Shown piece by piece: positions 39,077-42,644 of a stretch of 64,000 bases of DNA; position 1 is the first letter of the stretch, and every line of letters begins with the position of its first letter. The translations under genes and the position numbers were made by a program. The notes below the pieces were generated by a model. That model made no database searches and was not told the DNA's origin. It saw only the letters and a program-made list of their open reading frames with translations. Location of the stretch: assembly GCA_902783895.1 (NCBI GenBank), contig CACZST010000036.1, forward strand, positions 3,278-67,277, given 5' to 3'. The DNA is from an uncultured Erysipelotrichaceae bacterium (GTDB taxonomy: Bacteria; Bacillota_I; Bacilli_A; RF39; UBA660).

Positions 39077-39958
39077 TTAGTCTGTGGTTTTAAAATTTTC
39101 TGGTGATATTAATTTATTTGTTTTATAAAGTTTATCTACCATATTTTGAACTGTTTTACATTTTTGATACTCACTACCATTTAACTTAATAATATCTGGA
39201 AAACTTATTAAAATGTAAAGTAACATTTTTTCTTCTTTTTTTAATGGATAGTTCTTTTCATAAACACTAAATATATCTTCAAAGTCAAACTCTAAAGCGT
39301 GATTTAAGTAAAGTCTATATAAATCAAAAACAGGATTTTCTAATTTGGCTTTTCGCCAGCTTATTAAATAAGGTTTTTCGTTTGTGATAAAATGATTTAA
39401 ATTTAAATTACCATGATTTAGAGTTTTTCTTATTTTTTGACTATCTTTTATAATATCATGCCAGTTTTCTAATCTTTTTTTAGTATCTGATAGGCTATCA
39501 TAAATTATTGAAATGTTTCTTGCAAGTAGCATCTCGGATGGACTCATGTATACTTTACTTTCGATAATAGTTATTAAATCAGTATAATAATCATATAAAT
39601 ATCTGATATTACCATCTAAATCTTCATAGATTTGCTGATAATCACCTTTATCGAATTCTTCATAATGAGTTGTTTTACTATGAAGTAAAGCGGTTAAATT
39701 TACCAAATCAAGGATTTTTTGCTGTTTGGGAATATTATATTCATCAATATATTTATATATTTCAAATTCATCATCCTTATTTGAAATTAATTTTGGAAAA
39801 TAATCAAAATTTCTTGAATGTAAATATTCAAGAATTTCTGGATCTATCTTTTGCTTTTTATAAATATACTTTCCTTCACTAGTATTTATTAATGTCACAT
39901 CACCAAGCTTTTCATAACCCCTTGGCGTAATATTATATTTTTTTAAATCACTATTCAT
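39077..39958 (-). CDS. ysxE: CotS/YsxE-family spore coat protein (kinase-like fold)
   Basis: 'HGNLNLNHFI' (HGD-like catalytic-loop region) and position directly downstream of the spoVID-like gene, as in Bacillus. Confidence 0.55.
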   Translation of the reverse strand: MNSDLKKYNITPRGYEKLGDVTLINTSEGKYIYKKQKIDPEILEYLHSRNFDYFPKLISNKDDEFEIYKYIDEYNIPKQQKILDLVNLTALLHSKTTHYEEFDKGDYQQIYEDLDGNIRYLYDYYTDLITIIESKVYMSPSEMLLARNISIIYDSLSDTKKRLENWHDIIKDSQKIRKTLNHGNLNLNHFITNEKPYLISWRKAKLENPVFDLYRLYLNHALEFDFEDIFSVYEKNYPLKKEEKMLLYILISFPDIIKLNGSEYQKCKTVQNMVDKLYKTNKLISPENFKTTD

Positions 39959-40787
39959 TTGGTATTATTATCTTCGCACCTATTTTCAAATCATCTAAAT
40001 TATTATATAACTCTAGTTTATCCTTATCTATACTATATTTTTCACAAATAGTTTGAATGTTATCATTTTCAGTAACTACATGCACCTTATATACAACATA
40101 CCCTTCACTTTCATCCATATTATCAAATATTGATTTTACATTTATATTATCAGCTGAAACCTGTTTTATCTCCTGTGTATCCGTATTTTCTAAGGCCACC
40201 TCTTTAAAAGAATCTTTCTGCATCGTTTCCTTAAAAACCTCTTGAGTAGGTGCCTCTTTAAAAGAAGATACCAAATCTGAGGTAGACTCACCTACAGCAT
40301 CATTAGACTCACTAAACACCTCTTTTGTATTTTCTAAACTTTTAATAATTTCAGTTTCACTTTTCATAGCATCTTCTTTTTCTTCTACTGCACTTTCTAA
40401 AGATTCTATTTCCTCATCACTTTTTTCTTCTAAAACATCTACTTCTTTCACTTCTCTTTCCTCCCTTTCCATTAACCCCTCAATTAGAAGCTCAATATTA
40501 ACCGCTAAAATCTGATTATTTACAAGCTCATAGAAGAAATCATTTATATCAACAGTCACATTTTTTGTATCATATTTCTTATCAATACTTATATCAAAAG
40601 GAACATCAAATTCAAACATATCAAGATTTACAGAAGCATCAGTAAGTTTATAATTTCCACTTATAATAAAATTCCCACTTATAACATTACTTTCCAACTT
40701 ATAATTATGTTCAAGTGAAATACTTCTTATTTCAGCAATCTTATTTTCAAATGAAATATCATGCTTAAAAGGAATAGTTTTATTCAT
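39951..40787 (-). CDS. spoVID: stage VI sporulation protein D-like (SpoVID N-domain, acidic linker, C-terminal LysM)
   Basis: N-terminus 'FKHDISFENKIAEIRSISLEH', E/S-rich middle, C-terminal LysM 'YKVHVVTENDNIQTICEKYSIDKDKLELYNNL..LKIGAKIIIP'. Confidence 0.65.
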   Translation of the reverse strand: MNKTIPFKHDISFENKIAEIRSISLEHNYKLESNVISGNFIISGNYKLTDASVNLDMFEFDVPFDISIDKKYDTKNVTVDINDFFYELVNNQILAVNIELLIEGLMEREEREVKEVDVLEEKSDEEIESLESAVEEKEDAMKSETEIIKSLENTKEVFSESNDAVGESTSDLVSSFKEAPTQEVFKETMQKDSFKEVALENTDTQEIKQVSADNINVKSIFDNMDESEGYVVYKVHVVTENDNIQTICEKYSIDKDKLELYNNLDDLKIGAKIIIPNE

Positions 40788-40852: not shown

Positions 40853-42025
40853 TTATTTTTTTAATACTTTCCTAGTTAAAAGAGCTGCACATGCTATAAA
40901 TATAACTCCCATACTAGCAATTATTATCGACATCTCTGCCGATGTACTTGGAACCTGGACTACATCTACTTCTTCTTTATTGTTATCTTCTACTTTGTTT
41001 TCACTTCCTGTTTGGCCACCCTTTATTTCTTCCTTATCTTCTATATATTTTTCTATTGTATATGGCTGCTCTAAAGTACCTGATCCCTCTAGGGAAGTAT
41101 TAGAAGATAGATAGAATGCAGGAAGAACACTCTTACCATAACCCACACTACCACTACCCACGCAATAATTACTCTCACCACAACCACCACCACAAGCAGA
41201 AAAAACATATGTGCTAGCAGTTTCATAAATTGAAGTTGAATATGAAGAAATCATCCATTTACCATTCCAATCTTTTGCATACAAATAATTATGTGTATTA
41301 CTCATTTTATAACAGGTTGATGGATAACCATATTTATTTACGTATGCTAACACACTCGTGCATGCATTATTTGAACTTCCTTTTACATAATCTGTCACAT
41401 TCATTAAAGCTATTTTACCCTTCCATTTATATGCAGCCTCTTCTTTCATAGAATCTGATAAGTTTGTTTGATTATAAGCTGTTGGGCCTATATTCCAATC
41501 TTTGGTGACAATTAAATCTTGAACATCTTTATCTAACGTATTATACCAATCATTATTTAAATATGTATTTAAACTTGCTTCCTTTTCTGGAAGATTTTTT
41601 AATGTTCCATTTACCTCCCATGGCATTTGCGTTACTTTATTGCCACTAGAATCTAATGTAGTTGTTTTACTTCCCCACGATTTACAGCCATATTCACTTG
41701 TACAAAAGTCATTACTATCTGTAGAATATCTAACATTTTCCTCATCCCATGCTTTACTTCCTATACTTTCGTTTTTTATTACTTTAATAGTCCCATCTTT
41801 TTCTAAAGATATAATTCTATATAGATCATTACCTAGTTTTATATAATTATTTGGATTTCCTCCTTTATAAATATATCTTCCTTCTATGGTTGGATCTACA
41901 TATAGCCCTTCTCCTTCGGTTACTACATTTTTCTTTAATGTTTCACTTGTTTTTTCCATGGCTTTTACTGGCATTATATTTAAAGATATAAATACAGCAG
42001 TTAATAATACAAACATTTTTCTCAT
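40853..42025 (-). CDS. secreted protein with C-terminal membrane anchor, function unknown
   Basis: Signal peptide 'MRKMFVLLTAVFISLNIMPVKA'. Cys-rich 'SACGGGCGESNYCVG'. C-terminal TM 'MSIIIASMGVIFIACAALL' plus 'RKVLKK'. AGGAGAG RBS. The track start at 42160 is spurious because it reads through the T18 tract. Confidence 0.6.
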   Translation of the reverse strand: MRKMFVLLTAVFISLNIMPVKAMEKTSETLKKNVVTEGEGLYVDPTIEGRYIYKGGNPNNYIKLGNDLYRIISLEKDGTIKVIKNESIGSKAWDEENVRYSTDSNDFCTSEYGCKSWGSKTTTLDSSGNKVTQMPWEVNGTLKNLPEKEASLNTYLNNDWYNTLDKDVQDLIVTKDWNIGPTAYNQTNLSDSMKEEAAYKWKGKIALMNVTDYVKGSSNNACTSVLAYVNKYGYPSTCYKMSNTHNYLYAKDWNGKWMISSYSTSIYETASTYVFSACGGGCGESNYCVGSGSVGYGKSVLPAFYLSSNTSLEGSGTLEQPYTIEKYIEDKEEIKGGQTGSENKVEDNNKEEVDVVQVPSTSAEMSIIIASMGVIFIACAALLTRKVLKK

Positions 42026-42053
42026 ACACATCTCTCCTACCTTTACTATATCC

Positions 42054-42082
42054 ATTTTATCAAAAAAAAAAAAAAAAAACAA
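42054..42082 (-). promoter_or_regulatory. putative promoter whose 17-nt spacer is almost entirely a T18 homopolymer
   Basis: Minus strand TTGTTT - (T15 GA) - TAAAAT with TGn extended -10. Lies ~30 nt upstream of ATG 42025. Confidence 0.4.
42062..42079. repeat. homopolymer A18 (T18 on the coding strand)
   Basis: Counted directly: c-a(18)-c at 42061..42080. Confidence 0.95.
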
Positions 42083-42110
42083 GTAATATTTTAGGTAAAT
42101 AACTTGTCTT

Positions 42111-42644
42111 CTATGAGTATAATTTTGAATAAACATCATACATAATAACACCTGCCGCAACTGAAACGTTTATAGAGTTAGCCATGCCAAGTAATGGAAG
42201 ATGTACATATTTATCAGAAAGATTAATAGCCCCTTCAGATACTCCATCATATTCTCTTCCAAATATTAAGCACACTTTATTTTTAGGATGATATTCTCTA
42301 TAATCAGTACTATCATCTGTTACTTCGGCAGATACAATTTCAATGTCTTCTTCTTTTAGTTTTTTAATGACATCTACTATATTTTCGTGATATTCCCACG
42401 GAACCCATTTTTCTGCACCTCGTGATTATGATCTTATTTTTTTATTTGGTGGTATTATTGTACTTCCACAAATATAAACTTTTTTAATTAATAGTGAATC
42501 AGAAAGTCTTAAGATTGTTCCAATATTATGAGCACATTTTAAACTATCCAAAATTATATATATATCATTTCTTTTTATATTTTTAAACTTTTCTTTATTT
42601 ATTTTTCTTACTCTAAGTTCTTCTTTACTTAATTGATGAGACAT
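42111..42644 (-). pseudogene. TrmH/SpoU-family RNA 2'-O-methyltransferase interrupted by one in-frame TAA
   Basis: '...NKKIRS * SRGAEKWVPWEY...LIFGREYDGVS...LPLLGMANSINVSVAAGVIMYD'. 534 nt is 178 codons in a single frame. Stop at 42423..42425. Confidence 0.7.

Follow-up and report, generated by a model that had tools for sequence, protein, structure and literature searches.

Repeat-driven promoter switches are textbook mechanisms in pathogens such as Mycoplasma, Neisseria, Haemophilus and Helicobacter, and for gut commensals, the invertible promoters of Bacteroides are the main known case of phase variation. In Neisseria meningitidis, porA and opc have spacer homopolymers, poly-G and poly-C respectively, whose slippage makes expression of the surface proteins graded or on-off. 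Spacer-length promoter switches were also described for vlp of Mycoplasma hyorhinis, maa2 of M. arthritidis and vmm of M. mycoides (PMC2268961). As the work of Citti & Wise 1995 is summarised in PMC2268961, a homopolymer or short repeat lies between the -35 and -10 elements of the vlp genes, and its slippage toggles transcription. The T-tract in the promoter of the Helicobacter pylori surface adhesin sabA (T9-T18 or more) adjoins the -35 on its upstream side and alters the alignment of UP-like elements, and its length varies in vivo (PMC4081817). In M. agalactiae vpma, a T-tract just upstream of the -10 has no role in variation, which depends on the Xer1 recombinase (PMC2268961). The vpma case calls for caution, since it means that the position of a tract alone is no proof of its function.

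We analysed a stretch of 64,000 nucleotides (the window) from the assembly of an uncultured gut Bacilli bacterium (G000; 1.035 Mb, 51 contigs, 27.2% GC). A first-pass annotation had pointed to an 18-nt T homopolymer in this window as a candidate phase-variation switch in the promoter of a surface-protein gene. When the minus strand was re-read, its coordinates, T count and motifs were all right, and the arrangement that it had described, with TTGTTT, 17 nt (15 T plus GA), TAAAAT and the TG of an extended -10, was borne out. The features of the locus are listed below in the direction of transcription.

42111..42644, minus strand: SpoU/TrmH-type methylase gene, upstream; its stop codon TAG (42113-42111) is followed by aag and then by the hairpin
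42107-42080, minus strand: conserved upstream box with an imperfect hairpin (ACAAGTTATTTACCTAAAATATTACTTG)
42107-42102 and 42084-42080, minus strand: hairpin arms ACAAGT and ACTTG, 17 nt apart
42102-42080, minus strand: genus-wide box, the 3' 23 nt of 42107-42080; A-rich, UP-element-like, ending in the TTG of the -35
42082-42077, minus strand: putative -35 hexamer TTGTTT, made of the TTG of the box and the first three T's of the tract
42079-42062, minus strand: T18 homopolymer forming the promoter spacer (15 T plus GA, 17 nt)
42061-42060, minus strand: G-A between the tract and TAAAAT
42062-42061 and 42059-42054, minus strand: extended -10, with TG, A and TAAAAT; TGATAAAAT/TGATAAACT stands directly 3' of the tract in all family copies
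42053-42023, minus strand: short leader with a putative TSS near 42047
42038-42032, minus strand: Shine-Dalgarno sequence AGGAGAG, 15 nt 3' of TAAAAT and 6 nt before the ATG
42025-42023, minus strand: start codon ATG, opening the surface-protein gene
40853..42025, minus strand: surface-protein gene P0001, 390 aa, the ORF from the ATG at 42025
Unique flanks of the window tract: ...CCTAAAATATTACTTG / GATAAAATGGATATAG...

Genome-wide, the number of A/T runs fell with length from 1565 at 7 nt to 318 at 8 nt, 28 at 9 nt, 2 at 10 nt and none at 11-12 nt, and a second population of about 18 runs was found at 13-34 nt. From the base composition, about 0.02 runs of at least 18 nt were expected. The T18 run is real and far from chance. 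When oriented as poly-T, about 16 of the roughly 18 long runs sit in one conserved cassette, in which a box AAAATATTAC(C)TTG is followed by T(n), GATAAA(A/C)T, a Shine-Dalgarno sequence and ATG. The cassette consensus is aaaatattac(c)TTG, T(n), GATAAA(A/C)TGGtATtGTAAGrTAGGAGrG, about 10 nt and ATG AAA AAA, and comparison of the cassettes showed that the leader TGGtATtGTAAGrTAGGAGrG is kept among the paralogues. Every cassette of this genome precedes a paralogue of the same surface protein.

The fully assembled copies in G000 had tracts of T17, 18, 18, 18, 19, 19, 19, 20, 21 and 22. Six further contig ends lay within cassette T-tracts (C1:1-23, C3:23588-23607, C4:36105-36122, C17:9-21, C23:1-34 and C39:1-23), comprising right-hand halves of T20 and T18 and orphan left-hand halves of T13, 23, 23 and 34. 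Since six contigs end in this way, the poly-T tracts fragment the assembly. Public assemblies of the species also break at the window tract, and assemblies of the genus are systematically fragmented by such cassettes. One contig of 10.9 kb (C39) carries at least six family genes in tandem, with genes of large polytopic membrane proteins interspersed among them; its cassettes have T8, T18, T20, a fixed 17-nt spacer and the T23 at the contig end, and one of its family genes (721 aa) has two domain copies. Another family member has an A13 run in its first codons (C34:53530-53542), which is a tract in the coding region.

The placement of the tract in a -35/-10 spacer, as the first-pass annotation had proposed, was upheld in silico, both for the boxes and for the 17-nt spacing, by the paralogues and by the copies from the genus. 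The paralogues without a homopolymer (C14, C15, C29, C35, C41 and C39:8356) have TTGNNN (TTGTTT, TTGCTT or TTGCAC), exactly 17 T-rich nt and a -10 (TAAACT, TAAAAT, TATTAT or TATCAT), and their 17-nt spacers differ in sequence and end in TGa or TGc. Because the sequence is free and the length is fixed in these paralogues, the tract corresponds to the spacer, and in silico it is placed between the -35 and the -10 of the gene's own putative promoter. In other species, the interrupted copies likewise add up to 17 nt (for example TTGTTT-TTTTCCGCCATTTTTGA and TTGTTT-TTTTCTTTTTCTTTTGA). In the homopolymeric copies the spacer is n-1 nt, so that T18 gives the optimal 17 nt, while T20-T23 give 19-22 nt. 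Since the interrupted, and hence stabilised, alleles stand at 17 nt and not at 19-21 nt, the comparison of copies indicates that selection favours the spacing that T18 provides.

A third class of copies has T7-T8 tracts (at C9, C39 and C42 and twice at C34), without a -35 at a usable distance. These copies still carry intact genes, and therefore the correct spacing may be non-essential. The -35 itself is weak, as TTGTTT agrees with 3 of the 6 consensus positions; for this reason a consensus promoter scan did not list the window promoter (8/12 matches, below its threshold). The extended -10 probably matters, and its TG may mean that the promoter depends little on the -35. On a maximum-likelihood tree of the paralogues, promoter class (homopolymer, fixed 17-nt or short) showed 8 changes for 9 homopolymer rows, and its clustering was the same as that of shuffled labels. 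One strongly supported sister pair joined T8 with T20, and another (95/78 support, unstarred by the tree tool) joined T7 with a fixed 17-nt spacer. The scatter of the classes and the T8/T20 sisters argue that the spacer state turns over faster than the proteins diverge.

Length variation was then compared among public assemblies encoding exactly the same proteins as the window. The check for length heterogeneity that had been suggested for related isolates gave a positive result in assemblies of one strain, with T18 in one and T22 in the other and identity otherwise over more than 5.5 kb. Scaffold_343 of ERZ28615022 had 0 substitutions relative to the window and one 4-nt gap (T22 versus T18) over 4173 nt, and with overlapping loci included, this identity bar the gap reached the stated span. 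The difference is one between assemblies, in which homopolymer lengths from short reads can err. Within the single sample ERZ27280262, T24 stands at the end of the left contig and T18 at the start of the right one (...TATTATTTG-T18-GATAAAATGG). Control tracts at four sister loci were equal in independent assemblies (C34, T19=T19; C38, T22=T22; C3, T17=T17; C4, T21=T21-equivalent), which argues that the homopolymer length calls are reproducible, and the window tract was the sole one of the five tracts compared to change in length. In about 10 further public assemblies, the contigs on either side of the window tract break off within it or at it. Such breaks were considered as a sign of tract heterogeneity and set aside as weak, as the cassette recurs at dispersed sites and Illumina reads deteriorate at long homopolymers. 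Public assemblies with this locus derive from the runs SRR32661783, SRR29381469, SRR32661521, SRR5679019, SRR33718327 and SRR33718304, and also include ERZ28615022, ERZ27280262, ERZ28614110, ERZ28614672 and ERZ27298601. A search of JGI metagenome contigs with the exact 41-mer of the right flank gave 0 matches.

The gene behind the promoter had been described as encoding a secreted, Cys-containing, C-terminally anchored protein. This description held, and a large paralogous family was found, with 24 paralogues in the window's genome at 25-62% identity and with intact ORFs in all of them. P0001 has a signal peptide (MRKMFVLLTAVFISLNIMPVKA/MEK), many Cys residues, with conserved ones among them, and a C-terminal VPSTS followed by a hydrophobic helix and a basic tail. 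The C-terminal motif is V(E/D/Q)VP(S/P)TS with helix and basic tail present; an LPXTG sortase substrate was considered and rejected, as the motif differs. Against DUF6273 (PF19789), P0001 scored 20.1 bits (E 6e-4), below the Pfam cut-off of 23.5, while the cassette-linked relatives in two other species (G009 and G071) scored 31.2 and 26.7 bits, respectively. Precomputed Pfam assignments list DUF6273 for paralogues, weakly at two and with an E-value of at most 1e-5 at two. According to PMC10743442, DGRs target DUF6273 in phage receptor-binding proteins, and modelling describes it as a ligand-binding domain of the C-type-lectin-like kind. By these matches P0001 looks like a DUF6273-like, lectin-like, surface-anchored protein. 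An AlphaFold2 model built on a 16-paralogue alignment had a pLDDT of 46.7 and was unusable, and a PDB profile search with P0001 found no relative by sequence.

The cassette was at one point taken for a species-specific feature, as a pattern with the exact right flank GMTAAAMTGG matched G000 alone; this was rejected when a relaxed flank showed a genus-wide module. ATATTACTTG-T(n)-G is present in 27 of the 61 species of the genus, and the reversed control pattern gave about 0. Pure tract lengths across the genus have their peak at T16-18 and a second peak at T7-8, with few at T9-13, and the longest tracts reach T34 in the window's genome and up to T39 in the genus. The complete single-contig genome G009 has T7, 7, 8, 14, 16, 16, four T17 and four T18 (short-tract copies at C1:392199, 456863 and 525055). 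The tract modes of T7-8 and T14-22 are about one helical turn apart in G000 and G009. The bimodality of T7-8 versus longer tracts could reflect either a mutational trap, where short tracts stop slipping, or a second functional register. At L106 (G075:C107), T8 is followed by G8, and in its tandem neighbour T19 is followed by G3; the T8G8 is probably an artefact of two-colour chemistry, which gives poly-G after a homopolymer.

In complete genomes, the 12-mer AAATATTACTTG, if intergenic, nearly always precedes such a tract. The box consensus across the genus is aaaCAAGTGATTTATCGAAAATATTACTTG, and the 23-nt box TGATTTATCGAAAATATTACTTG corresponds to 42080-42102 of the window and to the genus copies L082-L121. 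Among 48 copies, the 3' arm and the 'loop' are 90-100% conserved and the 5' arm 35-88%. Judged by these alignments, the cross-species conservation of the 23-nt box is far above what a bare -35 would call for, and the box could serve as a UP element or bind a dedicated regulator.

Most genes downstream of the cassettes in the genus carry DUF6273, with different anchors: an N-terminal membrane anchor in G009 and G024, and a signal-anchor with an Ig-like domain in G071 and G076. These differently anchored proteins have the common core GDGLY...GRY.YKG.NPNNY...LWRI and exceed the Pfam cut-off for DUF6273. The view that several unrelated families share the cassette was largely dismissed, since the G009, G071 and G076 proteins have one DUF6273 core; the small G075 proteins were the only unrelated downstream products. 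The common core across species suggests that the module stayed with a ligand-binding surface-protein family through speciation. Among distant homologues in genome contigs, which belong to other 'uncultured Bacilli' and mis-binned MAGs, the domain was internal to larger proteins, and none had the cassette.

The upstream gene, called trmH-like before, is by Pfam of the SpoU/TrmH type (E 1.4e-32), and its domain is still full across an in-frame TAA at 42426-42428. The 72-aa N-terminal ORF that ends at this TAA was identical in 14 public contigs, which means that the population is fixed for the stop. In the G025 orthologue, Ser occupies the stop position (KKIRSSSRGAEKW, TCA to TAA), the G002 orthologue has an in-frame TGA, and of 30 other species of the genus, just 4 keep the gene, which seems to be decaying into a pseudogene. 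At the orthologous trmH loci of other species, synteny was not conserved and no cassette was found downstream; the origin of the window copy is therefore untraceable that way. Directly 3' of the surface-protein gene (window 39077-40787, minus strand) are a gene for a SpoVID-N/LysM protein (278 aa) and an overlapping one for a 293-aa protein, which resembles CotS/YutH-type spore-coat proteins by eye only and has as its sole Pfam match Arg_decarb_HB, an unrelated domain (E 6e-4, weak, below cut-off). These SpoVID-N/LysM and CotS-like genes suggest that this small-genome lineage may keep sporulation genes. Rfam and tRNA scans of the region gave nothing relevant.

On balance, we favour the reading that the T18 run is a promoter-spacer phase-variation element of the vlp type and one of about 16 such loci in the genome. 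A sigma-A-type promoter with the UP-like box, TTGTTT, T15GA and the extended -10 TGaTAAAAT would drive the lectin-like surface protein. As a single long homopolymer, the spacer would gain or lose T's by replication slippage, and each gain or loss would shift the -35 and UP box relative to the -10 in distance and in helical face. Tracts of T17-19 (spacers of 16-18 nt) would give full promoter activity, while longer ones, such as T22, would give weak transcription dependent on the extended -10, or OFF. The roughly 16 paralogues, each with its own tract length, would then be independent loci of a multi-locus contingency system for the surface-protein repertoire. Switching at the T18 promoter is in this sense what we infer. 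Loss of mismatch repair was dismissed as a cause, since MutL is intact in 26 of 26 genomes checked, a contrast with mycoplasmas that weighs against the vlp-type reading; given the intact MutL, hypermutability would rest on tract length alone.

Three other explanations were weighed against this reading. Chief among them, the tract could work as a rheostat, in which an extended -10 promoter is tuned by the distance and helical phase of the A-rich box, so that output is graded and periodic and T7-8 and T17-19, about one helical turn apart, are both productive registers. Such tuning agrees with the TG-extended -10 found in every copy, with the conservation of the 23-nt box beyond the need of a bare -35, with lengths that are bimodal (T7-8 and T16-19) in both G000 and G009, and with the intact genes of the T7-8 copies. 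We nevertheless think it unlikely, as the fixed paralogues keep TTGNNN at exactly 17 nt, which points to true -35 contact, and the T7-8 class may be a mutationally stable end state. The precedent of the H. pylori sabA T-tract (PMC4081817) also loses force here, as that tract is upstream of the -35 and not in the spacer. A sequencing or assembly artefact that made the long T run or its length difference is scarcely credible to us. Illumina data are indeed prone to errors in homopolymers of at least 18 nt, the tract is where many contigs end, and the G075 copy reads T8G8; against this, the tract is at the same position in independent assemblies, tracts occur at about 16 loci of the genome and in 27 species including two single-contig genomes, and the four control tracts were identical between independent assemblies.

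The remaining explanation is that the run has no regulatory consequence, being either the over-long U-tail of a terminator-promoter junction or a neutral hypermutable spacer drifting in length. The first-pass annotation had itself offered the U-run of a weak terminator as an alternative, and this stood in part: the hairpin (ACAAGT...ACTTGT) lies directly before the tract, 3 nt after the trmH stop, and the U-run exists, but the hairpin is weak and is missing or degraded in many copies. Its dG is -4.6 kcal/mol with an A/U-rich stem and 2 G-C pairs, and even the best copies reach about -7 kcal/mol with a 9-bp A/U-rich stem and an 11-nt loop; a terminator scan did not call the window hairpin, and the fold of the whole region is no more stable than those of shuffled sequences (z = -1.0). 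Across the 48 copies, 29 keep at least 7 of the 9 stem pairs, whereas 15 keep at most 5 of 9 and so have in effect no hairpin. No change in the 5' arm has a compensating partner, because what keeps the 3' arm invariant is its place in the promoter -35/UP region and not the stem. An intrinsic terminator needs about 7-9 U, which tracts of 18-39 T exceed. Since the hairpin is weak and absent from many copies, a terminator role would be secondary at best, and the hairpin with the T run may partly terminate parC-trmH transcripts. The promoter and terminator roles are not exclusive, and the length constraint is explained by the promoter role and not by the terminator role. Neutrality gains from the stability of 4 of the 5 tracts between assemblies and from the M. 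agalactiae vpma T-tract (PMC2268961), yet drift leaves the T16-18 mode and the exact 17-nt interrupted alleles unexplained, and we regard a run of no consequence as quite improbable.

The vlp-type switch might also be extended to the whole genus, as a poly-T 'phasome' in which a portable module of box, T-tract and extended -10 is placed on DUF6273 genes, with 10-20 switches per genome of 1-1.5 Mb. We offer this wider view tentatively, as a possibility that we would not rely on. The module would be attached whether the proteins are N- or C-terminally anchored, and would also stand before a few small membrane-protein genes. The switches would slip independently despite intact mismatch repair, T7-8 and T16-19 may be two functional registers, and the interrupted 17-nt spacers would be alleles locked ON. 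If true, no larger repertoire of SSR-driven promoter switches would have been described for a Gram-positive gut commensal, and the promoter homopolymers would be the longest known. If the switch at the window locus and its paralogues is true, a small-genome gut Bacilli genus varies a lectin-like repertoire of 20-30 members through 10-20 poly-T spacers per genome, and the vlp-type mechanism extends to mismatch-repair-proficient Firmicute commensals. Tract length per locus would be a practical marker for surface-coat variation in metagenomes.

Compared with the described systems, the locus resembles M. agalactiae vpma in having a T-tract immediately upstream of the -10 of a surface-protein promoter. 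It shares with H. pylori sabA a long T-tract in a surface-protein promoter, an A-rich UP-like sequence upstream and a layout common to several loci; unlike the sabA tract, it follows the conserved TTG and runs directly up to the extended -10, so that it does not belong to the sabA type. Like porA and opc of Neisseria, it has a homopolymer in the -35/-10 spacer of a surface-protein promoter. The Neisseria tracts are G/C runs of 9-14 nt at single loci of a Gram-negative pathogen, whereas here an A/T tract of at least 18 nt recurs across a family of 16-30 members.

The closest relative is the vlp system, with which the locus has in common a tract placed between -35 and -10, a set of several paralogous surface-protein genes that have a tract apiece, and a host with a small AT-rich genome in the Bacilli/Mollicutes radiation. 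It differs in that the entire spacer is filled by coding-strand poly-T (T17-T34, with a maximum of T39 across the genus), and in that a 23-nt box stands upstream and a TG-extended -10 downstream. The products also differ: where vlp genes encode lipoproteins with repeats, these are lectin-like DUF6273 proteins that carry a signal peptide and a VPSTS/TM anchor. The host, unlike mycoplasmas, is a MutL-positive, putatively spore-forming, uncultured gut bacterium, and unlike in vlp, switching is here deduced from sequence. The element is probably a mutational expression switch of the mycoplasma kind in a new lineage. Its architecture and logic are those already known from Mycoplasma vlp-type promoter-spacer phase variation; new here are the host lineage, the DUF6273 protein family, the whole-spacer tract length, how many loci a genome carries and the conserved box upstream.
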